Source of the DNA: a virus
Lineage: Duplodnaviria > Heunggongvirae > Uroviricota > Caudoviricetes
Strand: one strand, 5' to 3'
DNA: 64,000 nucleotides
Virus record (IMG/VR): IMGVR_UViG_3300031994_000015
Coordinates: 94,276-158,275 of that record
The first letter of the stretch is position 1; each line of letters opens with the position of its first letter. The position numbers were made by a program, and so were the translations under genes. Below, one piece after another: positions 3,232-55,760 of the stretch. Below the pieces are notes generated by a model that saw only the letters and a program-made list of their open reading frames with translations, ran no database searches and was not told where the DNA came from.

Positions 3232-4086
3232 ATGAATTGTATACAACAAAATACTCAACAAAATGGTGTAAAAAGCATATCAGCAGAGGAAGCATTGAAA
3301 CTTAAAGCACAATGGGAAGACCAAGTTGATTATCAATTTATACAAAGAATTGTTCAAGAATTAACCCAATCTTGTGCTTTACCATTGCCTGTTCCAGCCG
3401 CAGCTATTCCTCCACTTATTCTTCAAGCAGCTCAATATTTCTGGGAAAATTATGATGGTGCTATTGAAGAAAGATATTATTGCATTAGAAATTCTGATAT
3501 TAATAAATGTGGTCCAAACTTAATTATTAAATTACCACCAAGAATTATTTCTGTATTTGGGGTTTATAAGACAAGCGATAATTTCCAATATGCTGTAATG
3601 GGAGACTTTTCTCTTGAACGTATGATATTAAATAATTCAGCATTAGCTTTTGGTAGTGGTGGAACATTAAGTGATGTATTTGGTAGTGGTACTGGATATA
3701 ATTTGACTGATGTTATGGGAGCACTTTATGAAGTACAAACATATAAAGCTGTTTTTGAAAGCCCATTAACATTTAACTATAATGCTTATTCTAATGATTT
3801 AGTAGTACTTGGCGCATTAGGTTATTCAAATCTTATATTACAAACATTCTTAAGATGCAAAATACAAGATTTATATAAGCTTTATTATTTCTTTAGATAT
3901 TGTGTTTGTTTAGGTAAAAAATCTATGGCTACAATTCTTGGTACATTTGAGTATAAGATGCCTGGTAATGTTGCAATAAATTATGCAAGATTTGAAGATA
4001 GTGCAGATCAAGAAATGGATAAGATAGATGAATGGTGTAATAAACAACATTCCGCTGACTATTTCTTTAATTCAAATACAATTTAA
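3232..4086 (+). CDS. hypothetical protein (Gly-rich central region GSGGTLSDVFGSGTGYNLTD)
   Basis: 284-aa ORF, first gene after the divergent intergenic region; no recognisable motif. Confidence 0.5.
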   Translation: MNCIQQNTQQNGVKSISAEEALKLKAQWEDQVDYQFIQRIVQELTQSCALPLPVPAAAIPPLILQAAQYFWENYDGAIEERYYCIRNSDINKCGPNLIIKLPPRIISVFGVYKTSDNFQYAVMGDFSLERMILNNSALAFGSGGTLSDVFGSGTGYNLTDVMGALYEVQTYKAVFESPLTFNYNAYSNDLVVLGALGYSNLILQTFLRCKIQDLYKLYYFFRYCVCLGKKSMATILGTFEYKMPGNVAINYARFEDSADQEMDKIDEWCNKQHSADYFFNSNTI

Positions 4087-4091
4087 TAAAT

Positions 4092-4436
4092 ATGAAAAAT
4101 TTAAATATATATTTACAAGAAGGTAGAACTGATTATATAGAAACTGCCAAAGAAGTTACTGATAAATTAAAGGATATGAAATGTCCTAAGGGTGGAGAGA
4201 AAATTTATATTGATTTATCAGATGATAGAAAGATTTGTATATATAATGATGATAAATCAGTATATCAATCAATTAGAGCTCATCTTGAAAAGAATGGAGA
4301 AGTAGTTGATAGGACACAAGAAGGTTGTTGGTATGGTAAAGAGCATCTTTCAGGAAAGAATGTAACTGCCGAAGAAGCATTTGATAGATTAAAACAAAGA
4401 CTTTCTAAAAATAATATTGAAATGTATAATAAATGA
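4092..4436 (+). CDS. hypothetical protein; N-terminus MKNLNIYLQEG resembles the shared N-terminal tag
   Basis: 114-aa ORF, tightly packed after the previous gene. Confidence 0.5.
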   Translation: MKNLNIYLQEGRTDYIETAKEVTDKLKDMKCPKGGEKIYIDLSDDRKICIYNDDKSVYQSIRAHLEKNGEVVDRTQEGCWYGKEHLSGKNVTAEEAFDRLKQRLSKNNIEMYNK

Positions 4437-4684
4437 ATTTATTTAACCTAATTGGTCAATATAATAAGAACATGGGTTCAACTTATGGAGATATATTAGA
4501 AAATAATTTGAATCCTGAAAATAAGTTATCTAAGGCTGAAAAGGAAATTTATAATAAATATAAATTAGGTGACATTCAAAGATTTAAGATAAATGAAAAC
4601 CATGATTTGATTGATAATGGTTCAAAAATAAATCGTCAACCACAAGAAATTTCTGGTATTGGAATAGTAACACAAATTTGTTGA
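4433..4684 (+). CDS. hypothetical protein
   Basis: 83-aa ORF with ATGA overlap to the upstream gene. Confidence 0.4.
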   Translation: MNLFNLIGQYNKNMGSTYGDILENNLNPENKLSKAEKEIYNKYKLGDIQRFKINENHDLIDNGSKINRQPQEISGIGIVTQIC

Positions 4685-4996: not shown

Positions 4997-7900
4997 ATGG
5001 ATTTCTTAGATAATAGTGGACATGTTTTTTCTTTACCTTCATATTCTGAAGAGCCAATAGGTCATGAATTTGAAGAAAATGATTATATATTTTGGTTAGA
5101 CAATAATGTAACTTCTTCTTTATCGGTCAATAACTATTATAGTCGTGTTATAAACCTTGTAATACCTTATGATAGTTATGAGAATATGTCATTTGATGAA
5201 TTAGTAGATATAACTATTTCTATGGATTCACATAAATTCTGGTTATTAAAACCTACAGATATACAAAACTTAGTTAATGAGACAGATAATATTTCAAATA
5301 TTGTTCATAATATAAATGCTAAAGATAATTATAGATTCAATACATTAACTAATGATGATTTATATGTTCTAACTATTTCTAATAACTATGAGAATTCTAA
5401 TCAATGGGTTAGATCAAATATGGCTGTAGTTCCTTTATATATTTTAGGAAAAGCTAAAGAAGAAGGAACTTGGATTAGTAATATATTGATTCATATAAAA
5501 GATAAATCTGAAGATTATGAATCAGTTACAGAAGATTGGGTAAGTATTAGTGTTGGTGGAATATTTAAAGATGAAAATGAAATATTGACAATCAATGGCC
5601 AAAACATGGGTATTACATTACCTAAAGAAATGTTCAGAGCAGTATACCAACAAAGTTTCTTGAATGATGAGTTTAATGAAAATCTTTATAATTTGAAGCT
5701 TAAAGAATACCTTATTAACTTTATGAACATTAAAGGAGAACAAGGTAACTTTAGATCTGCAAATAATTCATTAAAGTGGTTTGGTTATAAAGACCATCTT
5801 GTTTTAACCAAACTTATGAAAACTGATAATGATATTAAAGAACAATATGTACATGATTGGTTTAATCTTAAGACTGATCTGATTAAATCATTTAAGTATT
5901 TTAGAAATAGTACATTTGTATCTATTAAGCTTAAAGAAAATCAAGAAATAGGAGAGAGATATTTATTTAACGAAGATAAAGAAAGCAGTTTCTTTGGTGA
6001 AGGTAAACCTATTTTAGAGAATCTTTTCAAAAAGGAAATTCCAGTTAAAGTTGGTTATGATGAAGACCAATGGACATATTGGAAGCCTTATTATGATTTT
6101 ACTTTTTATGAAATGGGTTTGAAATTATCATGTTTAAAATATTACTATGAAACATATTTCTTGCCTATTCACTTAAAAGTTCATTCGGCAACTATTGCAC
6201 ACCAAGTATTTACAAATGATATCAAGTTTGATAATAAAGTTTTCAATACAGTAAGAACTGAATCAATTATCAATACAGAAGAGACATTTGAAAATAATGG
6301 AAATAATATTGAATTTAAAAGAAATATAGTTGAGTTTGATAGCAATAATGTAAGATATTTTACTCACCAAATTCATTATGTAGATGAAAACTTTAATGAA
6401 TATAAATCTTATAATGATAAAGAAAATGGAAAAACTTTTTACAAGATAGATGATACATGTTTGAGTATACCTATTAGATTTAATAATGATGTAGATAGTA
6501 ATGGTTTAAATATACCTACATATTTTAATTGTGTATTATTGTTAGAACGTGAAGGTTTAGATAATGAAACAATCAATCAATATAGATTAAATATTCTTAA
6601 TCATCCAATTAATATTTGGTATTATGACATCAATATATTAAGTAAACAAACTAAAAAACCATTAGATTTATCTAATTATGAAATTGTATTTTCAGAAATG
6701 AATCAATTTAATAAATCTGACATCATATCTAATGGTTTAGAAGGATTGAAGACATACTTAAAAACATATTTTGCAATACCTGTTTTCTCTAAATATTATG
6801 ATTTAGATAATGAAAATTATAATTTAGAGTTTGTTTATACAGATGATGGTGAATATATTCAATTATATAGGGCTTCTTTAACTCAACAAATTTTGAATAA
6901 GTTTAAAAATTATGATTCTAATATTATAAATAATTTGTTTAATATATTAGATCAATTAAGTGTTACTAAAGAAGATGAAGCTCATAATAATTTCAAATAT
7001 TTGCATATTTCTGAAACACCTATAGAATATATTGATAAAGATTGGTACATTTATATTCCACCTATTAGTCAATTCAATTTTAATCCTATGAATACAAATG
7101 ATATTTATGGGGAAATATTTATTGTACCAAAAGTAAATATTCAATTAAAATTTGACCAAACAGAAATTCATGATTTTATAATTAAGCCAAAAACAGGTAA
7201 TTCAATATCTATTAAAGACAAAATTAGAATAAACTACATACCATTAAGTAAAGTTATGTATGAATCTCATTTTAATTTTGTACAAGATAAAACACATTTA
7301 GATAGTGTATACAATTCATTTATATTATATCCTAAATATATCAATAATCAAGATATTAATTATTTCATTAATAAGAAATTTACATTGAGATTATTAGTTA
7401 ACAATCATTGGTATAAATATGATTTTGAAACTAAAATGCCGGATGTAAACTTGAAATTTGGTACATTAAAATATAAATATTATAGCACTACAGATAATTA
7501 TTATTCAAGATTTTCTCAATTGTTAGATTTAACTTCAAATTCTGTTACATTCAATTCATTTATGTATCACCCAGAATTTGTTGAAGTTAATCATATCAAT
7601 TTTTTCAAAGACTTAGATAATTATATTAAATTGAATTCATTAAAATATTTAAGTAATGATGGAGAATTATTGAAACTTAGTAATTTTAATAGATATATAG
7701 ATTATGAATATTATGATGAAGATAATAAAGTCAAAAAAATAAAAATATATATTAGTAAATTCATTACTGATAAAAAATTCTTCATCTATTTTGATACTGA
7801 TTGGTTACAAGAAGATTATACATTGTTCAAACTTATTCCTGCTCAAATAGGTTACAATTTGTTAGCTAATCGAAATGATGATTTATGTATTTTAGGAGAA

Positions 7901-10900
7901 GAGAGATATTTTGATTTTAATAAAATGTTCTTTATAAGAAATTATGATGATAACACATTTTTAGGATCATATGTATATTTCAAAATAGATAACAATAAAT
8001 GTTATAGTAATAAAATTATAAATAAATACCATGAAATATACACAGAAGCAGGTTTAGAAACTATTGGAAATGCCGAAGATTGGTTAGAAATCATAGAAGA
8101 CTTAAGAAAATATAATATTGGATATATTAATCTAAATGGTATAAGTGGTATAAATAGAATTAAAAAGCATATATATTTACCTCTTAATTCAATTACAAAT
8201 AATGAACATATTGAAATCCAAAATATTTATGACCAAGAAATTAAATATAATATCATTCCTGAGATTAATAATTTTTATAACAGATATACTGAAAAGATAA
8301 ATATCAATAATGAAAATTATCTTAATAATATTTTAATATTCAATATATTCAAGAACAATCAAATTAATAAGAATATATTTAATAGCACAATATTTGGTAA
8401 TGTAAAATTAAGTGCAAACGGTATTATGTTTTCTCATAATGATTTAGATGAGAAAATTTATTTAAAGGGAAAAGCTTTATGGAGTGAAAATATTGATTCA
8501 AAATATTTAGATTTGTATGGTTTTTATATCAACCAAAAAGATTCTCATAGAAAATATCCTTGGAGTTGGGGTTCAAAAATAAAACCTATATTAGGAAATT
8601 TAGAAGCAATACAAATACCAGGACAATTTATATATTATCAAGATTCATTAGGAAATATAATTGGTAGTAATATTAAAATTAATTATAAAAAAGAAAATTT
8701 AGCTCAAATAATTTGTAATAATATTGAAGATTTTACCCATATTGAAGATAAGTTACCAAGTGATTATAAATGGATCAATAATAATGTTCAAAAAATTAAA
8801 TATGAAAAATTTGGAAATTCTGACAATATTACTGTAACTTATAAAACTGGTGAAATAGAAACAAATAAATTTATCTTAAATGTTAAATATATTAAGATTA
8901 ATCCATTAAATGGTCAATATTCAATATTAAATGAAATTACAAATTATGATTTATATAGAATCAATTCTTCAAACAATGATGGCAACTTAGATATTAAATT
9001 ATTATGTACTATAATTAAAATCTCTGTTGTTTATGAAGAAGTTGGTGAAGAAAAAGAAATAACATTAAATGTTTCTGATGCATATTTAAGTCGTTTAGAT
9101 ACGTCAAAAAATATAATTGATAAATTAGATATTATACCTTATGGTTTTGGAAAAATAGGTAATACCAATTATATAATTGGAAAACGATATGATGAATATT
9201 ATGCTATTGATCTAAATAAATTAAAAAATGGAAAATTTGAAGGTATAAAAATATTTTGTAAAGGAAATTCACAATATTTAGATAATAGAATTTCATCAAT
9301 AATAGAAGCTGAACAACCTGGATTATATGTATATAATTATGATTATTATAGAACAAGTACTGAAAATCTTAATTTAGATAGATTAGAATCTTCATTAGAT
9401 GTAAGTAATGATGCAGGAGAATTATTAGTAGATCGTGGTTTGGCAAGATTATACAGAGTTAATTATGATAATAATATTAAATATTTGATATTCTATGAAA
9501 GAGATATTAAATATGCATATGATTTAATGTCTCAATTCTCTGATTGTAATGCCGAAAATTGTATTATTTTAGAAGATATTTATCATGATTTTAAAACTAA
9601 ACAACATGTGAATGAAGGAAATAATAATACAAGAATATTAACAAAAATGTATGATAAATTCAATAATAAAAAATCATTATTACTTAATAAAATTATATAT
9701 AGCAAAACAAATACTGATTTAAATAAAATAGATTTCAATATTTTAGATTCTAAATTTATTAGTCTTAATGATGACGATATAGTTTATGTTATATATCAAT
9801 ATCAAAATCAAGAAGATTTAAATCCAATAATTTATAAATCATACACAAAAATTGAATTAGAAGATGGAGAAAATACAATTAAAGGTATAGTAAATAACTT
9901 AAATACAACACAAAATGGCATTTATAAATATGTTATAACTAATAAATTTAATTATATTAAAAATTACATTTATACATTAACTTGGGAGACTAATATTTAT
10001 GGAGCATCAATAAATTTATTTATTTTGAAAGAAAATTCTTATGAAATTCTTAAATATAAAGATAGTGAATTTTTGATGACTGATGATATAAAATCTATAC
10101 AAATGAGTTTTGTTGTCGAAAATAATGTACAAAATACTTTTATAGATGGATATATTATACCTAAAATATTCTCAAGTAAATTAACAAATAGTTATTCACA
10201 ATTAAAATATATTCCATCATCAGATTCTAATAAATTCATAGAAATCAATATTGATGGTAATAAATATGTTTATGATGATAATACCGATGATGATAAAGTA
10301 AAATTATATAATGATTTCTTTGAAATAGATTATCTTGCTACAAAAAGAGATGAAAATGGAAGAATAAGTGAAGAAAATACTGGTACTGTATATGAGATAG
10401 AAAAATTATTTAATATTGAAAAAAATTATTTGAAATGGTCAAATAACAATCAATTTACTTGTCGAAAAATTATATCTAATACAGATTTGCATAATAACAC
10501 TATTTTAATTACTAATGGTGATGTTTATTATGAATATACACAAGTTAATGATAAAGATATTTTAGCATATTTTGATAGTTTGTCAGAATTTAATAAATAT
10601 AATTTGGTTAATTTGATTAAGTATGATTTCAGTATTAAAACATACATAGATTTTTATGATTGTCATGTTTATAAATATATAATAGATAGTACTCCTATTA
10701 ATGAAGATAATGATTGTATAATTACTGAAAACTTAGAAGAGATTAAATTACCTGATTATTTTGTAGAAGAGAATTATGTAAAAGTAATCAAACAAAAAAT
10801 CAATTTAAAGAAATTCTTTGATTATGACTTCTATTTAATGCATGACTATGATTATTGGTATGGTGTATTTATATCTAAAGAAGTTATATCTAAGAACATT

Positions 10901-11344
10901 AATAATAGTAACTTAAAGATTTCTAAAGATTATAAAGTAATAGAATCTACAATATATCAAGAAAATGATTTCTACGAAAACAACACACCATATGTATTAA
11001 AATTAGTTGGATCTAGTAATGAATTCTTGATTAACCGTATGATGTTTGAAGAAACTAATGGAGTTAACCATTTTGATAATGATAAAATGATAGTGGCTAA
11101 ATTGGAAAACAATAATAAGCTACCTGTCGATATATTTAATTCACCTAAATGGGAAATAACTCCAAAATCAATAGGAATGGATAAAACATTAAAAATCAAT
11201 TCTAATCAAAATATGGCTTTAATATCATTCCCAGAAAATAATAATGTTTATCAAAAAGGTTATTATGATGTCAAAGTAAGATATTCATTAGATAAGAATA
11301 TTCAACACCAATTGCATAAAGATGGAATTATACGTATTGGATAA
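4997..11344 (+). CDS. giant 2115-aa protein, Asn/Ile/Lys/Tyr-rich; function unknown (possibly a large virion or tail-associated protein)
   Basis: Uninterrupted 6.3-kb ORF with no credible competing ORF; no catalytic motif recognised (no DxDGD). Confidence 0.85.
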   Translation: MDFLDNSGHVFSLPSYSEEPIGHEFEENDYIFWLDNNVTSSLSVNNYYSRVINLVIPYDSYENMSFDELVDITISMDSHKFWLLKPTDIQNLVNETDNISNIVHNINAKDNYRFNTLTNDDLYVLTISNNYENSNQWVRSNMAVVPLYILGKAKEEGTWISNILIHIKDKSEDYESVTEDWVSISVGGIFKDENEILTINGQNMGITLPKEMFRAVYQQSFLNDEFNENLYNLKLKEYLINFMNIKGEQGNFRSANNSLKWFGYKDHLVLTKLMKTDNDIKEQYVHDWFNLKTDLIKSFKYFRNSTFVSIKLKENQEIGERYLFNEDKESSFFGEGKPILENLFKKEIPVKVGYDEDQWTYWKPYYDFTFYEMGLKLSCLKYYYETYFLPIHLKVHSATIAHQVFTNDIKFDNKVFNTVRTESIINTEETFENNGNNIEFKRNIVEFDSNNVRYFTHQIHYVDENFNEYKSYNDKENGKTFYKIDDTCLSIPIRFNNDVDSNGLNIPTYFNCVLLLEREGLDNETINQYRLNILNHPINIWYYDINILSKQTKKPLDLSNYEIVFSEMNQFNKSDIISNGLEGLKTYLKTYFAIPVFSKYYDLDNENYNLEFVYTDDGEYIQLYRASLTQQILNKFKNYDSNIINNLFNILDQLSVTKEDEAHNNFKYLHISETPIEYIDKDWYIYIPPISQFNFNPMNTNDIYGEIFIVPKVNIQLKFDQTEIHDFIIKPKTGNSISIKDKIRINYIPLSKVMYESHFNFVQDKTHLDSVYNSFILYPKYINNQDINYFINKKFTLRLLVNNHWYKYDFETKMPDVNLKFGTLKYKYYSTTDNYYSRFSQLLDLTSNSVTFNSFMYHPEFVEVNHINFFKDLDNYIKLNSLKYLSNDGELLKLSNFNRYIDYEYYDEDNKVKKIKIYISKFITDKKFFIYFDTDWLQEDYTLFKLIPAQIGYNLLANRNDDLCILGEERYFDFNKMFFIRNYDDNTFLGSYVYFKIDNNKCYSNKIINKYHEIYTEAGLETIGNAEDWLEIIEDLRKYNIGYINLNGISGINRIKKHIYLPLNSITNNEHIEIQNIYDQEIKYNIIPEINNFYNRYTEKININNENYLNNILIFNIFKNNQINKNIFNSTIFGNVKLSANGIMFSHNDLDEKIYLKGKALWSENIDSKYLDLYGFYINQKDSHRKYPWSWGSKIKPILGNLEAIQIPGQFIYYQDSLGNIIGSNIKINYKKENLAQIICNNIEDFTHIEDKLPSDYKWINNNVQKIKYEKFGNSDNITVTYKTGEIETNKFILNVKYIKINPLNGQYSILNEITNYDLYRINSSNNDGNLDIKLLCTIIKISVVYEEVGEEKEITLNVSDAYLSRLDTSKNIIDKLDIIPYGFGKIGNTNYIIGKRYDEYYAIDLNKLKNGKFEGIKIFCKGNSQYLDNRISSIIEAEQPGLYVYNYDYYRTSTENLNLDRLESSLDVSNDAGELLVDRGLARLYRVNYDNNIKYLIFYERDIKYAYDLMSQFSDCNAENCIILEDIYHDFKTKQHVNEGNNNTRILTKMYDKFNNKKSLLLNKIIYSKTNTDLNKIDFNILDSKFISLNDDDIVYVIYQYQNQEDLNPIIYKSYTKIELEDGENTIKGIVNNLNTTQNGIYKYVITNKFNYIKNYIYTLTWETNIYGASINLFILKENSYEILKYKDSEFLMTDDIKSIQMSFVVENNVQNTFIDGYIIPKIFSSKLTNSYSQLKYIPSSDSNKFIEINIDGNKYVYDDNTDDDKVKLYNDFFEIDYLATKRDENGRISEENTGTVYEIEKLFNIEKNYLKWSNNNQFTCRKIISNTDLHNNTILITNGDVYYEYTQVNDKDILAYFDSLSEFNKYNLVNLIKYDFSIKTYIDFYDCHVYKYIIDSTPINEDNDCIITENLEEIKLPDYFVEENYVKVIKQKINLKKFFDYDFYLMHDYDYWYGVFISKEVISKNINNSNLKISKDYKVIESTIYQENDFYENNTPYVLKLVGSSNEFLINRMMFEETNGVNHFDNDKMIVAKLENNNKLPVDIFNSPKWEITPKSIGMDKTLKINSNQNMALISFPENNNVYQKGYYDVKVRYSLDKNIQHQLHKDGIIRIG

Positions 11345-29627: not shown

Positions 29628-29954
29628 ATGAAATCATTAAATAATTATATAAATGAAGAAAAGAAAACAACTGGAGCTGGTTGTGTTGAAATGGTTAAGA
29701 CTATTCTTGACCAATTAACTAAAGAACATTCTGATTGCAAATACGATAAAGAAAAAGAAGAATGGACAGGTAAAGATGCTGATTTATGGAAAGGTGCAGG
29801 TCAATTCTTATTTGACTATATGCACGAATTAAATCAATCAGACTTTAAGAAAATTGTTGATGCCATGGGTTGGAAGAAATGGATTCCTGATGTAAATGAT
29901 ATTCATCCAGCCGAAATTTCAATGTGTATGTCAATGGAATTAACAGGATTGTAA
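29628..29954 (+). CDS. small tagged protein (MKSLNNYINEEK)
   Basis: 108-aa ORF. Confidence 0.5.
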   Translation: MKSLNNYINEEKKTTGAGCVEMVKTILDQLTKEHSDCKYDKEKEEWTGKDADLWKGAGQFLFDYMHELNQSDFKKIVDAMGWKKWIPDVNDIHPAEISMCMSMELTGL

Positions 29955-29956
29955 TT

Positions 29957-30463
29957 ATGAAATCAATAATAACATATTTATTTGAAAAACAAAATCCTTT
30001 TAATGCTTGGATTATGGTAGGACTTCCTGGTTCAGGTAAGTCAACATATATTAAAGAAGAACTTCCAAAAAGTATTAATATAATTTCACAAGATTATATT
30101 AGACAGGAATTAGGCATAATGAAAGATGATGATCATAAAGCAATTGGTAATCTAGAACAAGAAAAAGAAGTTACAAGAATTTGTTTAGAACGAATTGATA
30201 AAGCAATTAAAGAACGCAAAGATTTTGTCATAGATAATACAAATATAAAAGTAGGTAGAGTTCAAAATTTTTATGATAAGTTAAAGAAAGCTAATGCTAA
30301 TGTACAAATAATCATTATTGATACACCTAAAGAAATTTGTAAAGAACGTCGTAAAGAATACATCTCAGAAAAAGTTATTGATGATATGCAATTAGGTATT
30401 GATAAAGTCAAAGAAACTTTCAAAAATAATGAAGATACAAAAATAATTTCAGATAGATACTAA
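29957..30463 (+). CDS. P-loop polynucleotide kinase (T4 Pnk kinase-domain-like), tagged (MKSIITYLFEKQ)
   Basis: WIMVGLPGSGKST Walker A, QDYIRQ, VIDNTN; start moved to 29957 after the upstream stop. Confidence 0.6.
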   Translation: MKSIITYLFEKQNPFNAWIMVGLPGSGKSTYIKEELPKSINIISQDYIRQELGIMKDDDHKAIGNLEQEKEVTRICLERIDKAIKERKDFVIDNTNIKVGRVQNFYDKLKKANANVQIIIIDTPKEICKERRKEYISEKVIDDMQLGIDKVKETFKNNEDTKIISDRY

Positions 30464-35618: not shown

Positions 35619-36953
35619 ATGAATATATCTATTGTTGGTACTGGTTATGTTGGCTTAGTAACTGGTACTTGTTTTGCCGAAATGGGACATAATGTACATT
35701 GTATAGATATCAATAAAGAAAAGATTTATAAATTAAATAATGGTATTATACCTATTTATGAGCCAGGATTAGAAGAATTAGTAAAAAAGAATATACAAGC
35801 TGAAAAATTATTTTTTGATGATGATTATAAATCTATAGAATATGCAGATGCTGTATTTTCAGCTGTTGGTACTCCACCGGATGAAGATGGTTCAGCTGAT
35901 TTACAATATGTATTAGCTGTAGCAAAAGAGTTTGCTAAGTATATTAAGAAACATTCTTTAATTATTACTAAATCAACAGTACCAGTTGGAACAGCAGAAA
36001 AGGTTCGTAAAGTTGTACAAGATACATTGAAAGAATTGAATAAAGAAGTAGAGTTTGAAGTTGTTTCAAACCCAGAATTTTTGAAAGAAGGTTCAGCTAT
36101 TGAAGACTTTATGAATCCTGATAGAATAGTTATAGGTTGCGATATGGAATATTCTAAGATGATTATGCAATCTATTTATAAAAAATTCCCAGACGAAAAA
36201 TTAGTATTTACAACTATTCCATCAGCTGAAATGATAAAATATGCTGCTAATTCTATGTTAGCTGTTCGTATTTCATTTATGAATGATATCGCTAATCTTT
36301 GTGATAAAGTTGGTGCTAATGTAGAAGATGTAGCTAAAGGTATAGGTATGGATTCTCGTATAGGACCAAAATTCTTACAAGCTGGTTGTGGATATGGTGG
36401 TTCATGTTTTCCTAAAGATGTAAAAGCACTTATTAAAACTGGAGAGCAAAATAATATAGATATGAAAGTTATTAAAGCAGCTGAAGCTACTAATAATTCA
36501 CAAAAACATATCCTTTATGATAAATTATATAAAGCATCTTCAAGAGTTGATTATCAAATAAAGAATATTACAATATTGGGTACTGCATTTAAACCTAATA
36601 CCGATGATATGAGAGAAGCTACTTCAGTTGTATGTTTAAATGATTTATTGAATGATAATCAAAAATTAGGACCATTTGATAAGATTAAGATATATGATCC
36701 AATAGCATTAGGTGAAGCTAAAAGAATAATAGGTGAATCAAATGAGAAGATTGAATATTATAATGAATTAGATAAAGCTATTATAGATGCAGATGCAATA
36801 ATTATTGTTACTGAATGGAAACAAATTAAAGAAATGTCTTTAGAGGTTGCAAAAAAATTAATGAGAGGTAACATAATTATAGATGGAAGAAATATATTTA
36901 ATAGAAAAGAATTAGAGAAATTAGAATTTATATATGAAGCTATAGGAAAATAA
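35619..36953 (+). CDS. ugd: UDP-glucose 6-dehydrogenase family (UDP-glucose/GDP-mannose dehydrogenase)
   Basis: N-terminal GTGYVGLVTGTCFAEMGH Rossmann motif and catalytic GCGYGGSCFPKD motif. Confidence 0.85.
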   Translation: MNISIVGTGYVGLVTGTCFAEMGHNVHCIDINKEKIYKLNNGIIPIYEPGLEELVKKNIQAEKLFFDDDYKSIEYADAVFSAVGTPPDEDGSADLQYVLAVAKEFAKYIKKHSLIITKSTVPVGTAEKVRKVVQDTLKELNKEVEFEVVSNPEFLKEGSAIEDFMNPDRIVIGCDMEYSKMIMQSIYKKFPDEKLVFTTIPSAEMIKYAANSMLAVRISFMNDIANLCDKVGANVEDVAKGIGMDSRIGPKFLQAGCGYGGSCFPKDVKALIKTGEQNNIDMKVIKAAEATNNSQKHILYDKLYKASSRVDYQIKNITILGTAFKPNTDDMREATSVVCLNDLLNDNQKLGPFDKIKIYDPIALGEAKRIIGESNEKIEYYNELDKAIIDADAIIIVTEWKQIKEMSLEVAKKLMRGNIIIDGRNIFNRKELEKLEFIYEAIGK

Positions 36954-40885: not shown

Positions 40886-43800
40886 ATGGCAATTCCTGTT
40901 TATTTACAACAATTTAAAGCTGCTGGTATATACCGTGTTGTTTTTGATAAATCAACTGTTTTAAATCAAGATACCCAAATGCTTAGATTGGTTGTCGGTT
41001 ATTCAGAAAAGGGTCCTTTCAATGTACCTGTTTATATTAAGGATTCTGGTGAATTTAGACAAATTTTCGGTGAGCCAAGTAGAAAATTAGAAAAGCGTGG
41101 TATTTTCTTCCACCGTCTTGCTCTTCAAATGCTTCAAGTAAGTCCTATTCTTTGCTTGAACTTGAAGAAATTCGATGGTGAAACTGTATCAGGTGCAACT
41201 ATCTCTACCGACTTCAACCCTAAATTTAATCCAATTGACACAGTTAAGCTTAAGGTCGAAGATATCTATGACACTACTCGTTTCTGGGATCTCGATGAAA
41301 ACCAATTGAATGGTGCTCGTTCAGTTGAAGGTACAGTTCTTGACCAATATATCAACATTTGTGTTAAAGATACAAAAGCAAATTCTGGTACATACTTTAT
41401 CCGTAAAGCAAGCGGACAAAAGGTAGCTGGATATAATTTAACAGTACATGATTGGTATAGTGACAGAGCTGAAGAAATTCCTGAATACCTTGAAGGTAAA
41501 GAAAATAACTTGATGTCTGACTATTTTGCTGAAATCTATGTATTCAAAGGAAAGTTCACTGCTAAGCAAGTTCTTGCATCTGAAACTCTTAAGAATTACT
41601 TCATGATTACAGATGAATTAGACGAAAATGATGAACCAGTTCTTGTTCTTCGTAACCAAGTATTTGATGGTTTTGGTGATCCAGTTGATCCACTTGATGC
41701 TCTTTACAATGACGAAACATCTGGAGCTATTGGTCACTGGGTAGGTTCTCTTATTCCTGACTTTAAGAATAAGCAAGGTGCTTATGCAGCTCTTAATGTA
41801 TTATTCAATTCAGATGCTGATATTCACAATATGATGATGTCATTCAACACTGATCTTCTTGAAGAAGGTGATGGTGCTAATATTGATCTTTCTGGTCGTT
41901 TATTCATTCCTACAAATACTGCTGTAGCTCAAAAGAAAGTTTACAATAAATCTCTTTCTCTTGAAAAGATTTATGATGGTACTGCAACTACAACTGTTTT
42001 AGGTAACGTTAATGCACCTGTTATCGCTGATGAAATCAAGTTTGGTGTTAATGTTTATGATCTTTCTGCTCCAGAAGGTGAAGGTGCACTTGTTCCACTT
42101 GAAACTAATGGTAAGACAAAGATCTATGGTACATTATATGTATCTGAAATCAATCATGAAATTCCTAAGACTGTTCAAGAATTAGGTGAAAAAGGTGAAA
42201 ACGATGAATACCCATCAGAAACAGTTGAAAAGAAATATGTAATCTCTACTATTACTCTTAATCAAGTAGGTAATACTGATGAAGATAAGAAGATTACTAT
42301 CACTGTTGATAATAAATACCAAGCTATGAAGATAGCTGCTAAATTAGGTGTTCTTGTTAAATCATACTACACCGAAGAAGATGTAGCTGCTGCTGAAGCA
42401 GAATTATTAGAAGGTGAAACACTTCCATTTAAAGCTGGTGATCCAAAAGAACTTAAGCTTGAAGATGGTTATGGTACATACTATGCAGGAGATGCATTTA
42501 TGGACGAAGAAGAACCACTTGATGGTCCTGAAAAAGTTATTACTTCTATCTCTCGTCTTGAAGGTGGATATTCAGAAGATTATGATATCTTTACTGATGT
42601 TGATAATAACCTTAAAGTTAACTTCTTAAATGTTGATATTATAACTAACACAAGATTTGTTAATGAAGGTAAAATTGGTGAAAACTCAGTATATGGTACT
42701 TCTGTTTCATTCATTGATTTTAATGATAACAACTGGGATTTTGTTGATGACCAAATCATTGATGGAGTATATGGTACACCTGCTCTTATTTCTAAGAATT
42801 ACTGCGATAAGTCATTACTTGCAGTTCTTCAAAATGGTGATACTATCTTAGCTGATGATGGTACTAATGATATGAACCTTGATGGTGAAATCGATGATAA
42901 AGATAAAGATTTGTACTACGATAACGTTTATGTTACAGGTTTTGGTACTGAATACTATAAAGCAGATGATGATGAAGTTAAAGCTGGTACAAAAGAAGTT
43001 GGTGAATTCAAATTCTACTATGTAACTTTCTCAGCTGAACCACTTCTTCTTATTGCTAAACCAACTGAAAATGCTAAGTTATCTCAAAATAACTACATCA
43101 TTCGTGTTGATGGTGCTCTTAACAGAGAAGTAGGTACAATGGTTCCTCAATATCTTGAAGGTTATACTTACAAGAATGATAAACCAGAAGGAACAGGTAT
43201 GTGGGCAAAAGTTCAATGGCAAAACTTTATCCTTTCAGCTTTAACAGATTACAAAGGTCTTCGTACTGGTCTTCTTAATAAGTCTGAAATTGATTATCGT
43301 TATGTAATTGATACATTTGAATCATTCCCACAAGCTAGCCTTAAGAATGTTCTTTCATTCTTATGTAAAGAAAAGCAATCTGCTTTCTGTATCGCTAACT
43401 TCCCATCAGTTAAATCATTTGTTAAATGTCCTTATGCATCATTTACTGATAGAAGAGGTTTATTCGATGTACAATATGTTGTAGATGGATTCAATAAGAA
43501 AAAAGCTGCTTCAATTAAGTTTGCTTTACCATCAGATGCAGATGGTGCTTCATTTATTGCATTCTACACACCTCTTAAGTTCTCTGATGGTTATATTGAC
43601 AGTATTATTCCATCTGCAGGTCTTGTTTCTAACTTATTCGTTGACAAGTACATTTCTCGTCAACCATACTACATAGTTGCAGGTCCTAACTACGGTAATA
43701 TTACTGCATCTGGTCTTGTTGGTCCTGACCATAAGTACTCACAAGATGAACTTCAAATTATTGAACCATTTGGTGTTAACTGTATGGTTTACCGTCCAAA

Positions 43801-44188
43801 CTTCGGTACATTCATCAATGCTAACCAAACAGCTAAACAAACACCTGTTTCAGCTCTTTCTAAAGTTCATGTTCGTGAATTGGTTATCTACTTACAAGAT
43901 GAAATTGAAAAGGTTCTTCAACGTTATCAATGGGAATTCAACAACCAACGTACTCGTAATGCTATCCTTGATAAAGCTAATAACATCTGTGAACTTGTAA
44001 AAGCTAACGGTGGTCTTCAAGACTATAAGAATATCATGGATGAATCTAACAACACACCAGAAATTATCGATAATGAAATGGCTGTATTGTCTACACATAT
44101 CGAACCTGGTCGTGGTATGGGTAAGATGGTTCACGAATTACATATCTACAGAACTGGAGAAATGCAAGCTTCTATAAGCGCTCAATAA
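40886..44188 (+). CDS. tail sheath protein, T4 gp18-like (1100 aa)
   Basis: C-terminal region VHVRELVIYL...QWEFNNQRTRNAI...GGLQDYKNIMDESNNTPEIIDNEMAVLSTHIEPGRG aligns with T4 gp18 INVRRLFNML...LFELNNAFTRSSF...GGIYEYRVVCDTTNNTPSVIDRNEFVATFYIQPARS. Confidence 0.75.
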   Translation: MAIPVYLQQFKAAGIYRVVFDKSTVLNQDTQMLRLVVGYSEKGPFNVPVYIKDSGEFRQIFGEPSRKLEKRGIFFHRLALQMLQVSPILCLNLKKFDGETVSGATISTDFNPKFNPIDTVKLKVEDIYDTTRFWDLDENQLNGARSVEGTVLDQYINICVKDTKANSGTYFIRKASGQKVAGYNLTVHDWYSDRAEEIPEYLEGKENNLMSDYFAEIYVFKGKFTAKQVLASETLKNYFMITDELDENDEPVLVLRNQVFDGFGDPVDPLDALYNDETSGAIGHWVGSLIPDFKNKQGAYAALNVLFNSDADIHNMMMSFNTDLLEEGDGANIDLSGRLFIPTNTAVAQKKVYNKSLSLEKIYDGTATTTVLGNVNAPVIADEIKFGVNVYDLSAPEGEGALVPLETNGKTKIYGTLYVSEINHEIPKTVQELGEKGENDEYPSETVEKKYVISTITLNQVGNTDEDKKITITVDNKYQAMKIAAKLGVLVKSYYTEEDVAAAEAELLEGETLPFKAGDPKELKLEDGYGTYYAGDAFMDEEEPLDGPEKVITSISRLEGGYSEDYDIFTDVDNNLKVNFLNVDIITNTRFVNEGKIGENSVYGTSVSFIDFNDNNWDFVDDQIIDGVYGTPALISKNYCDKSLLAVLQNGDTILADDGTNDMNLDGEIDDKDKDLYYDNVYVTGFGTEYYKADDDEVKAGTKEVGEFKFYYVTFSAEPLLLIAKPTENAKLSQNNYIIRVDGALNREVGTMVPQYLEGYTYKNDKPEGTGMWAKVQWQNFILSALTDYKGLRTGLLNKSEIDYRYVIDTFESFPQASLKNVLSFLCKEKQSAFCIANFPSVKSFVKCPYASFTDRRGLFDVQYVVDGFNKKKAASIKFALPSDADGASFIAFYTPLKFSDGYIDSIIPSAGLVSNLFVDKYISRQPYYIVAGPNYGNITASGLVGPDHKYSQDELQIIEPFGVNCMVYRPNFGTFINANQTAKQTPVSALSKVHVRELVIYLQDEIEKVLQRYQWEFNNQRTRNAILDKANNICELVKANGGLQDYKNIMDESNNTPEIIDNEMAVLSTHIEPGRGMGKMVHELHIYRTGEMQASISAQ

Positions 44189-47156: not shown

Positions 47157-47184
47157 TTAGAATTTAGATTGTAAATATGTTGCT

Positions 47185-47679
47185 TCATAATCCAAGTTCC
47201 ATTTGTGTTGGTTGCTTTGGTTCATCGTATTCTGGAAGTTCTCCTCTGTCTCGTAAATAAGTAAGTCTAGAGCAGAACTCTTGTCTTGTAAGTACTGTCT
47301 CGGAACTTTTGTTTTTTCCAATAGAATGTTCCAAAGCCGCTCCATTTGTAGCTTGTAAAGCTTTATAGAAGCTTCCATTTTTATAAAGTCTATTGTAGGC
47401 TCTATTGAGGAGATTTTGGTATGCTTCTGAATCTCGTTTATATGTTCTTCCATTCCAATATAGTTCTTGTTTTTGATACCACTTCTTTTTCTTTCCTTTA
47501 AATTTTGCGGCCTTACCAACTAATGTACATACATATCTTTGCATTTCTATAGATTCAAATTTCAATGCTTGTAAAAATCCTTCCATAGATGCACATTCAA
47601 CACCATCTATTTCAAACGGATGTGGAGAAAAATTTGATAATGCCGCACTTGGATAACCATTTCCGCTTCCTATATCCAT
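47185..47679 (-). CDS. NADAR-domain protein (YbiA-like, DUF1768)
   Basis: LSNFSPHPFEIDGVECASMEGFLQALKF aligns with E. coli YbiA FSNFAAWPIKVDGKTWPTSEHYFQAQKF; conserved C-terminal region continues with ALEH. Confidence 0.65.
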   Translation of the reverse strand: MDIGSGNGYPSAALSNFSPHPFEIDGVECASMEGFLQALKFESIEMQRYVCTLVGKAAKFKGKKKKWYQKQELYWNGRTYKRDSEAYQNLLNRAYNRLYKNGSFYKALQATNGAALEHSIGKNKSSETVLTRQEFCSRLTYLRDRGELPEYDEPKQPTQMELGL

Positions 47680-47681
47680 AT

Positions 47682-48578
47682 CTATGAATTATATTTATTT
47701 AATTGTATTTCTTTAAATTCTTTAATCTGAGTATAATATTCTTTGAATAACTTAATTTTTTCTGGTGTTTTATTATTATACACAAAATAATGTTGACCGG
47801 TATATCTTGGTTCATAATTATTTACTTTTCTATCACATCTACCTCTTAAAGATTTATATTTAATATATTCTTCGGTAGATTTAGTTACATAATGACTTAA
47901 ATATGCTGTTTGATAATATTCTTTATTTATAAAAATTTGAGTATAATAACTATCACCTTTACCTTCCCTTATCTTTTTTGTAAAATTAAAATTACCTAAT
48001 ACATCACATACTTTAATTTTATATCCTTCTTGAAAATTTCCTAATTCTGGTTCATGTATACTATATAATTGAATAACTTCATTTAAATGCCCACGAATAA
48101 AGTATTTAATCCCATTAAAATAACTGAATTTAGTTGGTTTAGTAAATCTTTCTTTTACTGGTTTAGGTTCATAATGTATTTTTCCAGAATCTCCATAATT
48201 TTTCCAACAAAACAAAATAGAATCTGTATTTTGAAATATAGATTGATTTAGAAAATCTTTGATATTTGTTTGTTTCTTTATTTCTACAAACTCATCTATA
48301 TCTATAAAACCTATCCAATCAAATTCTTCTTTTCTATTTTGATATATTTCTGCATAAAAAGTTTGTTGATATCCTAATTTATCATTTAAATTAACAAGTT
48401 CTACATATCCACTATCTATATAACTTTGAATAATTGGTTGTAATGGTATTTCATAATTACTATCATTATTATCTCCAATAATTATATGATCTACTCCAAT
48501 TTTTTTATGCCATTCAATCCATTCTTGAATATATAGTTCTTCCATTTTAGCAATGGCACAAATCCATATTTTATTCAT
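47682..48578 (-). CDS. glycosyltransferase, GT92-like (paralog B)
   Basis: CAIAKMEELYIQEWIEWHKKIGVDHIIIGDNNDS...FIDIDEF pattern; paralogous to 54864..55760. Confidence 0.5.
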   Translation of the reverse strand: MNKIWICAIAKMEELYIQEWIEWHKKIGVDHIIIGDNNDSNYEIPLQPIIQSYIDSGYVELVNLNDKLGYQQTFYAEIYQNRKEEFDWIGFIDIDEFVEIKKQTNIKDFLNQSIFQNTDSILFCWKNYGDSGKIHYEPKPVKERFTKPTKFSYFNGIKYFIRGHLNEVIQLYSIHEPELGNFQEGYKIKVCDVLGNFNFTKKIREGKGDSYYTQIFINKEYYQTAYLSHYVTKSTEEYIKYKSLRGRCDRKVNNYEPRYTGQHYFVYNNKTPEKIKLFKEYYTQIKEFKEIQLNKYNS

Positions 48579-49420
48579 TGAATATTAACATCTAAAAATT
48601 TATTTATTATATCATCATTCCAATTTAAATGGTTATATAATCTATTTCCTTCATTATTTGAAAAAAAAGTAAAAAATCCATTCATTTTTTTATTTATAAA
48701 TGCACCAGGAATTTTCCTTGTTCCATATACAATATTAATCTTATTGTTTTTTAATTTTAATCCATTTGGTAAATTTGTAGATTTAATAATTTTTCCTTCT
48801 GATGGGTGTTCTTCAAAATATTTTACTAAAAATGGATTAGTAAGTTTAGTATTTTTATAAACAGATTTATTATATATTCTAACTAATTGTATTTTTATCC
48901 CTTTATTAACAATTTCATTATATTTTTCTTCTCCAATAAAATTATTGTCATCTACTGTAAAATGAATAAAAATACCAAAAACATTTTTTTGTATCTCTAA
49001 AACTTTATTTATAAAATCATCTAAAGTTCCAAATGGTGCATGATATGCGGCATCAATAACTAATCTATTATTAAAAATTTTATTTAATTCAGTATAATAT
49101 TCAACTGATCCTGATAAATTAGTTTGTATCTTAATATCATTTATCAAATCGAAATCTATATATTTTACTAAATTCTTATAATATTTTAAATCTACTAATG
49201 CCGGTTCACCACCTTGGATATTTAAAAATATTGGTACTTCATATTTAGTTTTAATAGCATTAAATAACATCCCTATATTTTTATTAACAACATCTTGATT
49301 TTTATATAAATGTTTTAATCTATCTTTTTTGGTGAATCTCCAACCATTAGGGTTACAATATACACAAGGGAAATTACAATATTCAGCAGCTACTCTATAA
49401 TTTATAACTATTTTATTCAT
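48575..49420 (-). CDS. radical SAM enzyme
   Basis: CNFPCVYC (CxxxCxxC) near the N-terminus and IQGGEPAL SAM-binding motif. Confidence 0.65.
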   Translation of the reverse strand: MNKIVINYRVAAEYCNFPCVYCNPNGWRFTKKDRLKHLYKNQDVVNKNIGMLFNAIKTKYEVPIFLNIQGGEPALVDLKYYKNLVKYIDFDLINDIKIQTNLSGSVEYYTELNKIFNNRLVIDAAYHAPFGTLDDFINKVLEIQKNVFGIFIHFTVDDNNFIGEEKYNEIVNKGIKIQLVRIYNKSVYKNTKLTNPFLVKYFEEHPSEGKIIKSTNLPNGLKLKNNKINIVYGTRKIPGAFINKKMNGFFTFFSNNEGNRLYNHLNWNDDIINKFLDVNIQ

Positions 49421-49428
49421 TATTAATA

Positions 49429-49803
49429 TTATTCCATTATTTTATTATCCAAATATATTAAATTCTCTTTAATAGAATGTTCTTTAAAATATTCTTTAAC
49501 TTCTTTTAATATATTGTTTCTTTCATCTTTATTCCATTTCTTTGTTACTTTGCATGGCTTATCAATATCATATACACAAGTAATAAACTTTAATTTCTTT
49601 TCTTTATTATTTATGCATACCCAATAATAGTCATATCTATCTTCTGATAATCCTATTACATACCAAAATGTACCATCAAGATATTCTTTCCATTGTGATT
49701 CATCTTCAAAGAAAAACTTATAACAATTATCTATAATATGATTTGGTACTGGTGAAGCCCATGCTTTAGTATTTATTCTTTCAATAAATTGCTCTTTATT
49801 CAT
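49429..49803 (-). CDS. hypothetical protein
   Basis: 124-aa ORF. Confidence 0.45.
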   Translation of the reverse strand: MNKEQFIERINTKAWASPVPNHIIDNCYKFFFEDESQWKEYLDGTFWYVIGLSEDRYDYYWVCINNKEKKLKFITCVYDIDKPCKVTKKWNKDERNNILKEVKEYFKEHSIKENLIYLDNKIME

Positions 49804-50761
49804 AATTTAAATATAATGAATCTTTAACTTGATCTTTATTTTTGAATTCTTTATTAGACTTTGATCTAAGTTTCTTAAATGAACTATGACCCGCATCTAC
49901 ATATTCATGTCTTGTATAAAAATGTGGAATATTAGCTGTTCTATCTTCATCACCAGTTAATCCATCATAAGACAATAACCATTTAACATTTCTATCATTC
50001 ATATCCATAATGGTTTTCCAAAATAAATCCGTATCAAAACCATTACAAAAATATAAACCACCTGTATTTTCATAAGGTGGATCCATATATACTAAATCAC
50101 CAGATTTAGCATTACAAATCACTTCATTATAAGATTTATTTATAAATTCTATAGTTCCTCCATTATCTATAAATGAATCAATAACTAATGCCCACGAATC
50201 AAATACTGATCTTAATTCTTCAGGTGTTATACCAAATCTACCAGCCACATGAAACGATGCATTAAAATGATTATTCTTTGGGTTATATCTTATAAGTCCA
50301 TTAAAACAAGTACGAGTAATCCAATAGAAAATCATTGAACGTTCTTGACTATGGTCATTTTTATCTATCAAATCATTATATTTCTGACGCATCTCATAAT
50401 ATAATGTTTGTATTTTTTGAACATCTTCTCTTGTAATATCAGTTCCTTCTATATAATTACATCTTTCTTTTAATTGTTTATGTAAATTACAATAAAAATT
50501 ATAAAGTTCTTCTCTTGTATCTTTTCCTTTTAAAAGATTCCAAATAGCAATCAAATCATAATTAATATCACTGCATATGATATGATTGCATTTAATTTCT
50601 TCTTCATAAATTTTATTTAACAATTCATGTAATACTGATGCTCCTCCTAAGAAACATTCATAATATGTATCAATTTCTCTTGGAAACTGACTTACTATAT
50701 ATGGTGCTTGTTTACGCTTACTACCTGACCATTTGATAAAAGGTGTCTTACTTGTTTTCAT
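49796..50761 (-). CDS. dam: DNA N6-adenine methyltransferase, Dam (D12 class) family
   Basis: FIKWSGSKR (Dam motif FxKWAGGK region) and VYMDPPYENTGG (DPPY catalytic motif). Confidence 0.7.
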   Translation of the reverse strand: MKTSKTPFIKWSGSKRKQAPYIVSQFPREIDTYYECFLGGASVLHELLNKIYEEEIKCNHIICSDINYDLIAIWNLLKGKDTREELYNFYCNLHKQLKERCNYIEGTDITREDVQKIQTLYYEMRQKYNDLIDKNDHSQERSMIFYWITRTCFNGLIRYNPKNNHFNASFHVAGRFGITPEELRSVFDSWALVIDSFIDNGGTIEFINKSYNEVICNAKSGDLVYMDPPYENTGGLYFCNGFDTDLFWKTIMDMNDRNVKWLLSYDGLTGDEDRTANIPHFYTRHEYVDAGHSSFKKLRSKSNKEFKNKDQVKDSLYLNYE

Positions 50762-51095
50762 CTAATTTTGTAACTTTTTGATTTTCTTCTTTTGTTTTCT
50801 TTTCTAATGCCATATTTTGTTTACGAATATTCAATAAACAAATTTCTTCCATGGTTACTCCAAAATCAGTAGCCATATTAGTAATATAATATAAAATATC
50901 ACCTAAAGAAATAGCCACTTTCATAGAATCTTGCTTATCTATTTGGTGAGTTGGATCATCTAACAATTCTCTTATTTTTTGATTTAATTTTCCAAACTCT
51001 TCACCGATACCAAAAGTACAATAAAATGGCCCTATTTCCATAGGGTATTTAGCAAAATTTCTTACTTGAGCTTGATAATCATTAATCTCTAACAT
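50748..51095 (-). CDS. MazG-like nucleoside triphosphate pyrophosphohydrolase
   Basis: FGIGEEFGKLNQKIRE (EExGE) and LGDILYYITNMATDFGVTMEE resemble the MazG all-alpha NTP-PPase helices. Confidence 0.5.
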   Translation of the reverse strand: MLEINDYQAQVRNFAKYPMEIGPFYCTFGIGEEFGKLNQKIRELLDDPTHQIDKQDSMKVAISLGDILYYITNMATDFGVTMEEICLLNIRKQNMALEKKTKEENQKVTKLDENK

Positions 51096-54000: not shown

Positions 54001-54275
54001 TCCTTTAATTCTCTTTCTATTTCATTATAAAACACATCTATAAATTCACCATAAGTGATATCAGACTTAATTAATAATTCATCATTAACTAATATTTTAC
54101 ATTTTCTTTCTATTTCTGATAACACTTCATACCAATCTAGTGGATCATGTAATAATTCTTTAACCATTATAAGATTTTCACCATTATTAACTTTAGAACT
54201 AAAAAATGTCTTTTCTAAACCAGATTGTTCTATAATTATATCATCAATTACTTTTTTTAATGTTTCCCTTTTCAT
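53982..54275 (-). CDS. hypothetical acidic protein
   Basis: 97-aa ORF. Confidence 0.4.
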   Translation of the reverse strand: MKRETLKKVIDDIIIEQSGLEKTFFSSKVNNGENLIMVKELLHDPLDWYEVLSEIERKCKILVNDELLIKSDITYGEFIDVFYNEIERELKECKGLQ

Positions 54276-54879
54276 ATAATTCGATAGCTTTATTAAAAGA
54301 TATTTTTTGTTTTAATTTATCTTCTACTCTAACATAACCGGAGTTGTCGTTGTAGAACAATAATGAGTAGATGCATTTCTTTGTTTTAAGGTTGTATACC
54401 AATTTGAAACAATTTCTTGGAATAAGATGATTATTAAGATCATAATCACAACCACCACAAATGATAAGTAAAGAGTCTTGTCGACTAAATTTCCTAATTT
54501 CCCCTTCATATTTTTTCCAAATTCCTCTATTAAGTTTTATAGTTTGAGGTATACAATTTATATAGTAAAATGTTGATTTCAATTTTTGTTTATTATTAGC
54601 AAAATCTTCAGCAGGAACTAAATGACCTCTATCATATCCAGATCTTATATAATTAAAATGTGGTAAATTGTTAAATGATTTGAATTGTAAATTAGTTCTC
54701 GATTCATTTCCACCACCTTGATATAACTTATAAATTACAAATGAAGAAGTTTGTATAGAAGAAGCATAATAACATTTATAATATTGCATGTCAATTATTT
54801 TATCATATTTCTCTATATTTTGAGAAAAACATAATATACAAACAAAAAATAATATTATAGTTATTATTTTCTTTCCCAT
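54244..54879 (-). CDS. secreted non-specific DNA/RNA endonuclease (NucA or Serratia nuclease family) with signal peptide
   Basis: N-terminal MGKKIITIILFFVCILCFSQN signal peptide, and YDRGHLVPAEDF matching the DRGH His-Me finger active-site motif. Confidence 0.65.
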   Translation of the reverse strand: MGKKIITIILFFVCILCFSQNIEKYDKIIDMQYYKCYYASSIQTSSFVIYKLYQGGGNESRTNLQFKSFNNLPHFNYIRSGYDRGHLVPAEDFANNKQKLKSTFYYINCIPQTIKLNRGIWKKYEGEIRKFSRQDSLLIICGGCDYDLNNHLIPRNCFKLVYNLKTKKCIYSLLFYNDNSGYVRVEDKLKQKISFNKAIELYEKGNIKKSN

Positions 54880-55760
54880 AATTTTTTTAATACTTGATTT
54901 TTTAAATATGTTTTAATTTGTTTCTTTTCATCTACTGATAAATTTATATTATTAGTAGGATTTTTAATTATTTTGTCATAACAACATATAATCTTGTTGA
55001 CAGATTGTATCTTATAAAAATATTTTTCTTTAGGTCCAGTAGCTCTACCTCTAAATATTTTTTCAACATATTCATCAAACGATTTATAAAAATAATGTAC
55101 TAATGTCACAGCACCAGGATCTATAATTCTCTCAGAACCGTGGATAACTGATGTTTGAACATTAATAATTTGGTAATTATCTCCTAATTTAATAATTGGT
55201 TTATATAATTCTTTATAAATTGGATAATGTAAAGATACTCTTTCAATATTATTTGAATATCTAAATATTGATTTTACCCCTGTAGAATAAGCACCATTAT
55301 GAATTTTATGAACAGTTTTAGTATAAAGTTCTTTATATGGAAGATTTACTTTATGATATAATGGAAAATTTTCAGAAATTCTATATTCCCATTTAACAAA
55401 AATATTATCAGTATCTTTAAATTCTTTTTGATTTAAGAATTCTTCAATATTTGAAAACTTATTTTTCAAATCTAAAAATTCATCACAATCAAAAACACAA
55501 TACCAATCATAATTATCTTTTTCTTGAAAATAAATGTTAGTATAAAATTTATGTTGAATATCTTCTATACCTTGATAATTGTAATATTGTACTTTACCAC
55601 TATCAATATATGGTTTTAATACTTTATATTGAACATTATTACCTACATCATTATTATCTCCAAAAAAGATTGTAGTTATTCCTAAATCTATATAATGATC
55701 TATAAATTCTAATAAATGTTCTTCTTCATTTTTTCCTACACATAATAATGCTATTTTCAT
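54864..55760 (-). CDS. glycosyltransferase, GT92-like (paralog A)
   Basis: CVGKNEEEHLLEFIDHYIDLGITTIFFGDNND...VFDCDEF; paralogous to 47682..48578. Confidence 0.5.
   Translation of the reverse strand: MKIALLCVGKNEEEHLLEFIDHYIDLGITTIFFGDNNDVGNNVQYKVLKPYIDSGKVQYYNYQGIEDIQHKFYTNIYFQEKDNYDWYCVFDCDEFLDLKNKFSNIEEFLNQKEFKDTDNIFVKWEYRISENFPLYHKVNLPYKELYTKTVHKIHNGAYSTGVKSIFRYSNNIERVSLHYPIYKELYKPIIKLGDNYQIINVQTSVIHGSERIIDPGAVTLVHYFYKSFDEYVEKIFRGRATGPKEKYFYKIQSVNKIICCYDKIIKNPTNNINLSVDEKKQIKTYLKNQVLKKLWERK

Follow-up and report, generated by a model that had tools for sequence, protein, structure and literature searches.

The 64-kb window analysed here, a stretch of 64,000 nucleotides, carries within a minus-strand block of non-structural genes a complete gene for a 164-residue NADAR protein (Table 1). 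The reading frame put forward in the earlier note holds to the nucleotide, on the minus strand and from an ATG to a stop codon, and the integrity of the gene is established. Read directly from the sequence, this ATG lies 2 nt past the stop of the upstream glycosyltransferase gene, which makes the NADAR gene part of a tightly packed block. Residues 14-41 of the protein, the N-terminal NADAR motif, read LSNFSPHPFEIDGVECASMEGFLQALKF. The two GT92/GT2-like glycosyltransferases of the block are paralogs (32% identical, E 2e-24), and one of them is the gene directly upstream of NADAR.

Table 1. Features of the window, numbered from its first nucleotide; the parts of the NADAR gene follow the gene itself
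Feature	Coordinates	Strand	Basis or remark
Head closure protein	21714-23354		
Head maturation protease	37107-38807		
Major head protein	38929-40674		
Tail sheath	40886-44188		
Phage NADAR gene (gp30.3/AdfN family), complete, 164 aa	47185..47679	minus	ORF list, ATG to stop
N-terminal NADAR motif, residues 14-41, LSNF..F..DG......EGFLQ..KF	47557..47640	minus	YbiA and T4 alignments
Catalytic E33 codon	47581-47583	minus	codon read directly from sequence
Catalytic K40 codon	47560-47562	minus	codon read directly from sequence
H118, subfamily-defining histidine of the last strand	47326..47328	minus	alignments
C-terminal alpha-helix, residues 132-145, begins QEFCSRLTYLRD	47245..47286	minus	predicted helix, T4 alignment
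Variable C-terminal tail, residues 146-164, GELPEYDEPKQPTQMELGL, probably disordered	47188..47244	minus	pLDDT, alignments
GT92/GT2-like glycosyltransferases, 298 aa, two paralogs	47682..48578 and 54864..55760	minus	
281-aa CxxxCxxC protein (N-terminal CNFPCVYC)	48575..49420	minus	weak viperin-like N-terminal match
Dam-type methyltransferase	49796-50761	minus	
MazG-like protein	50748-51095	minus	
SF2 helicase	51114-52913	minus	
SLOG/YAcAr (DprA-like) protein, 136 aa	53590..54000	minus	
Non-specific endonuclease	54244-54879	minus	

The major head protein, head maturation protease and tail sheath establish that the window is phage DNA, and the phage is a myovirus; lysozymes and an M15 peptidase are also encoded. 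Its GC content varies between about 22 and 35%, and no tRNA gene was found in the 64 kb. The closest major head protein is that of the uncultured 462-kb phage LR756500.1 (37% identity), followed by those of Sphingomonas phage PAU, of Tenacibaculum and Chryseobacterium jumbo phages and of the Prevotella Lak megaphages. Homologs of the NADAR protein with 87-89% identity lie mid-scaffold, among phage genes, on metagenomic scaffolds of 454 kb and 468 kb. Taken together, the kinship of the head protein and the size of these scaffolds make a huge phage of the PAU/Lak lineage the very probable source of the window, rather than a member of the Straboviridae. A DNA-level search of isolated phages returned a single 59-bp match, located inside the NADAR gene, so the phage has no close sequenced relative among them. 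A 2115-aa open reading frame with no Pfam or PHROG match (4997..11344, plus strand) lies where the window is richest in AT (GC ~22%).

Profile comparison points to the phage gp30.3 subfamily, and not to the YbiA family, as the decisive match for the NADAR protein. The Pfam model PF08010 (Phage_30_3, 'Bacteriophage protein GP30.3') is matched over its full length (profile 1-138/138) with E 1.5e-54 and 184 bits, where the gathering cut-off is 36 bits; phrog_652 is matched with E 1.6e-48, and BLASTP aligns T4 gp30.3 itself at 39% identity over 147 residues (E 2e-30). PADLOC returned only sub-threshold noise for this protein. Membership of the NADAR family, as read from the sequence in the earlier note, is established, and it can be stated more precisely as membership of the gp30.3 subfamily (PF08010) rather than of the YbiA subfamily. 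That note had also described a clear alignment to E. coli YbiA across the conserved core. The description is apt for the N-terminal motif, where YbiA residues 29-56, FSNFAAWPIKVDGKTWPTSEHYFQAQKF, align with residues 14-41 at 11 of 28 identical positions (pairwise E 4e-5, BLASTP), and too broad beyond it, since pairwise similarity is confined to these 28 residues.

The remote relationship to YbiA emerges from family profiles. With hhalign, a profile of 13 diverse family members aligns to YbiA over 102 columns (probability 86%, E 4.8e-6); in a search of a family profile against all PDB sequences YbiA is the best hit at E 1.2, reaching E 0.05 with a more diverse profile, and phmmer with the single window protein found no match among PDB sequences. 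Because the sequence-only link to solved structures is marginal, a comparison of folds was needed. The AlphaFold2 model of the protein (pLDDT 84) finds strong fold matches only among NADAR structures, which establishes the fold; as modelled, the protein has the helical core and small flanking beta-hairpins of the NADAR (YbiA) fold, with no extension of it.

The active site is conserved. BLASTP places E36, K43 and H123 of the T4 protein opposite E33, K40 and H118. Across 13 diverse family members S15, N16, D25, E33 and Q37 never vary, K40 reaches at least 90% conservation, and H118 is invariant in both family alignments, including that of the 13 diverse members. The hhalign block ends at residue 117 of the window protein and V124 of YbiA, which sets H118 opposite YbiA E125. 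The concern that catalytic residues might be missing is thereby answered, as E33, K40 and H118 are present by the T4 alignment, the 13-member alignment and hhalign alike. Phage NADARs are described as carrying a histidine in the last strand at the position where YbiA-type proteins have a catalytic glutamate and DarG1-type proteins an aspartate (PMC11543638, PMC11125620, PMC12945103), and substitution of either E36 or K43 by alanine impairs rescue by the T4 protein (PMC11825919).

These features bear on the possibility that the gene serves metabolism as an auxiliary gene, its product being an N-glycosidase of the YbiA type that renders intermediates of riboflavin biosynthesis harmless, a role that would fit the NADAR fold and N-terminal motif common to E. 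coli YbiA and the window protein. The corresponding NCBIfam model, TIGR02464, gives a weak match (E 1e-3) of 19.4 bits, below its cut-off of 73.7 bits and restricted to residues 12-49; a histidine, H118, replaces the last-strand glutamate that defines YbiA; and riboflavin genes are absent nearby. Similarity to E. coli YbiA (PDB 2b3w) extends over about 30 residues only, and YbiA is found in a chromosomal LexA operon whereas the window protein is found in a phage. With the model score below its cut-off and the glutamate replaced, the protein appears from its sequence to lie outside the YbiA subfamily, and we give a riboflavin-related role almost no weight.

The DarT1-associated DarG1 proteins, represented by the G. 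lovleyi NADAR (PDB 8bat) and the E. coli C7 NADAR, differ in other ways. DarG1 carries an aspartate in the last strand and an N-terminal extension that forms a DNA channel; the window protein has its histidine there, is shorter (164 aa against 219 aa for 8bat) and lacks the extension, and its NADAR motif starts at residue 14, leaving no room for one of the DarG1 type. Nor does a DarT1 gene adjoin it, so that none of the three hallmarks of DarG1 (adjacent DarT1, aspartate, N-terminal extension) is found. Phage NADARs are described as consisting of the core domain only (PMC12945103).

The C-terminus also follows the T4 protein. The helix at residues 132-145, which is predicted and aligns to the C-terminal end of T4 gp30.3, is intact; in phage RB69 the protein is truncated 15 residues early, and loss of the C-terminal helix correlates with sensitivity to DarTG1 (PMC11825919). 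Beyond the helix the AlphaFold2 pLDDT drops to 60 in the penultimate block of ten residues and to 41 in the final one. The sequence of these last ~19 residues is not conserved among close homologs, and the tail (residues 146-164) is missing in the T4, Klebsiella and Vibrio phage homologs.

Chance falls far short of explaining this gene. Homologous proteins form 3572 clusters at 90% identity (E<=0.001), tblastn finds homologs in 1507 phage genome records, and dN/dS is 0.12-0.19 against four relatives with 80-89% amino-acid identity, which establishes that the frame is under purifying selection. An overlapping open frame of 120 codons (47157..47519, minus strand) lies in the +1 frame inside the NADAR gene, the same relative frame as the internal gene 30.3' annotated in T4, and is longer than codon-shuffled sequences lead one to expect (p 0.003). 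The frame stays open in two relatives but is interrupted in those of 89% and 80% identity, its conservation is 61-73% against 82-89% for the main frame, and its product shows no similarity to T4 30.3'. We therefore rejected it; it is probably not a gene.

Within the gp30.3 branch the protein belongs to a distinct subclade marked by the motif 'MDIGSGNGYP'. It is 66-70% identical to homologs in T4-like phages of Klebsiella and Enterobacter and in a Vibrio siphophage, so that, judged by sequence, the subclade appears unusually well conserved between a low-GC huge phage and phages of Klebsiella, Enterobacter and Vibrio, with the variable tail in the huge phages. Vibrio phage 51E28.4 (83 kb, siphovirus-style locus tags) carries its gp30.3-type NADAR at 4001..4447 of locus L009 (70% identity), and Desulfovibrio phage 7757 (143 kb) carries one at 56% identity, also counted in the subclade. 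The gp30.3 branch is said to occur mainly in T4-like phages; the Vibrio and Desulfovibrio homologs indicate that it is not limited to them, and it has probably moved horizontally. Gene neighbourhoods differ widely among the homologs. Across the homolog loci compared, no conserved partner that could account for the T4 protein's dependence on context was found, the small downstream frames at six homolog loci share no Pfam family, and the gene for a DUF7205-type 69-aa protein downstream of NADAR is kept only in the closest huge-phage relatives. The NADAR gene behaves as a mobile, stand-alone module.

What is known of the function comes from T4. Bioinformatics identified phage NADARs years ago, and in 2025 gp30.3 was published as AdfN (anti-DarT factor NADAR), a DNA guanine ADP-ribosylglycohydrolase that acts against DarTG1: it strips ADP-ribose from DarT1-modified DNA in vitro, deletion of the gene renders T4 sensitive to DarTG1, and the protein neither binds DarT1 nor counters the thymine-specific DarTG2 (Johannesman et al. 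2025, PMC11825919). In agreement, T4 gp30.3 cleaves guanine-ADP-ribose and not thymine-ADP-ribose (PMC11125620), and cytidine-ADP-ribose is listed as not hydrolysed by it (table in PMC12945103). Every feature of the gp30.3/AdfN subfamily that sequence or structure can reveal is present in the window protein, which shares with T4 AdfN the full-length PF08010 match, the core-only NADAR fold, the Glu/Lys/His residues and the intact C-terminal helix; both are encoded by stand-alone genes in contractile-tailed phages.

We consider it probable that the product of the window gene is an 'orphan' ADP-ribosylglycohydrolase with the NADAR fold, encoded on its own and belonging to the gp30.3/AdfN subfamily, and that it most likely repairs guanine-ADP-ribosylated phage DNA and so counters a DarT1-type defence. 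By analogy with T4, the substrate would be guanine-ADP-ribose on DNA and the role anti-defence. A host DarT1-type ADP-ribosyltransferase would modify guanine in the phage DNA, and the NADAR enzyme would hydrolyse the N-glycosidic bond between ADP-ribose and guanine, with the E33-K40 pair of the N-terminal motif holding the distal ribose and H118 acting alongside in catalysis; removal of ADP-ribose would then allow phage replication to proceed in hosts with such toxin-antitoxin defences. A counter-measure against ADP-ribosylating defences had been suggested from the sequence alone, and it gains support as the published function of the T4 member of the subfamily (PMC11825919, PMC11125620); the companion suggestion of a counter to NAD-consuming defences finds no support here. 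The idea itself is already published for the family.

The differences from T4 AdfN limit how far this function can be carried over. The two proteins share only 39% identity, which would count against transferring the T4 function to the window subclade. The window protein ends in a variable tail of ~20 residues without counterpart in T4 AdfN, its locus shows no synteny with the T4 30.x cluster, and it is carried by a PAU/Lak-like huge phage (~28% GC), whereas AdfN belongs to a phage of the Straboviridae. T4 AdfN is fully effective only during T-even infection (PMC11825919), so that an unrelated huge phage need not share its function. Anti-DarTG1 activity has been demonstrated for two other orphan phage NADARs, AdfN-Bas32 and AdfN-Bas60, from T5-like and Vequintavirinae phages (PMC11825919). 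Both come from NADAR branches other than the gp30.3 branch of the window protein, and they neutralise DarT1 even when no phage is infecting; the T4 member of the gp30.3 branch, by contrast, depends on the setting of a T-even infection.

The neighbourhood of the gene fits an orphan antitoxin-like enzyme: no ADP-ribosyltransferase adjoins it, and its neighbours are a GT92-like glycosyltransferase and the DUF7205-type protein. This arrangement also speaks to a different role, in which the NADAR protein regulates or reverses an ADP-ribosyl modification made by the phage itself, or serves as the antitoxin in an ART-NADAR pair that the phage carries. There are precedents for such coupling: a few kb separate gene 30.3 from alt, an ADP-ribosyltransferase gene, in T4 and in Aeromonas phage phiAS5, NADARs are co-expressed with ADP-ribosyltransferases as early genes in T4-like phages (Iyer et al., PMC9503650), and DarT1-DarG1 and YarT-YbiA are known ART-NADAR pairs (PMC11125620). 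However, no ART, Macro or Nudix gene was found by Pfam, PHROGs or PADLOC among the ~50 window ORFs scanned, a scan that covers the 64 kb of a genome of probably ~450 kb; the immediate neighbours are of other kinds; and T4 Alt targets protein arginine, which is not a known NADAR substrate. We regard such a role as very improbable.

More weight is due to the possibility that the fold and chemistry are the same and the substrate is another one, either RNA guanine-ADP-ribose or soluble ADP-ribose-derived signals or RNA-repair by-products that arise from other host immunity. Removal of guanine-ADP-ribose from RNA is reported for all four NADAR families (PMC12945103), and Iyer et al., arguing from gene context, proposed that soluble ADP-ribose derivatives may be the main targets of many phage NADARs (PMC9503650). 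The SLOG/YAcAr gene, whose product has PADLOC similarity to ShosA and PsyrA, shares the minus-strand block and lies ~6 kb upstream on the same strand, which is compatible with a soluble derivative; a co-occurrence of SLOG with NADAR and Macro domains has been reported for phages (PMC9503650). A 72%-identical relative has a Nudix gene two genes downstream and an Rnl1-type RNA ligase gene upstream, and a PRPP synthetase gene adjoins the homolog of an Aeromonas phage. Since homolog neighbourhoods are not conserved, the proximity of SLOG and Nudix genes may be incidental, and the sole genetic evidence for the subfamily, that from T4, indicates DNA and DarTG1 (PMC11825919). We find a different substrate unlikely, if less so than the roles weighed above, and favour repair of guanine-modified DNA.

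A bolder variant concerns the 'MDIGSGNGYP' subclade as a whole, which might differ from T4 AdfN in substrate or deployment, acting for example on ADP-ribosylated RNA, on a soluble ADP-ribose-derived immune signal or against a non-DarT1 ART toxin of Bacteroidota-type hosts; a literature search for DarT or NADAR in Bacteroidota gave nothing relevant. If true, the subclade would counter ADP-ribosylation more broadly than the T-even enzyme does, the latter being tied to its own infection context; we think this rather doubtful. On the favoured reading as an AdfN-type enzyme, the window adds an apparently functional member from a huge phage with ~450 kb metagenomic relatives, and suggests that nucleic-acid ADP-ribosylation defences also exert selection outside the enterobacterial T4-like phages. 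Mildly new are the carrier, a PAU/Lak-like huge phage, and the spread of the subclade beyond T4-like phages.

Several other genes of the window deserve mention in their own right. The 281-aa CxxxCxxC protein belongs to no Pfam or PHROG family. Over residues 5-87 PADLOC weakly matches it to the prokaryotic viperins (pVip; E 1.3e-5), and it could be a radical-SAM enzyme of a divergent kind; its gene is flanked by the Dam-type methyltransferase and glycosyltransferase genes. GT92-like genes recur near NADAR homologs on two other contigs. Amid the structural genes lie sugar-nucleotide genes (24255..26898 and 35619..36953, plus strand) for a HAD hydrolase, for a 665-aa protein whose N-terminal part matches cytidylyltransferases, and for a UDP-glucose dehydrogenase (PHROG E 1e-97); these genes may reflect modification of glycans or of the virion. 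A 179-aa protein with an AAA_33/Zeta-toxin-like P-loop kinase domain (29924..30463, plus strand; Pfam E 1.4e-20) is also encoded, and a Zeta_toxin-like gene is likewise found near the NADAR homolog on the 454-kb scaffold.
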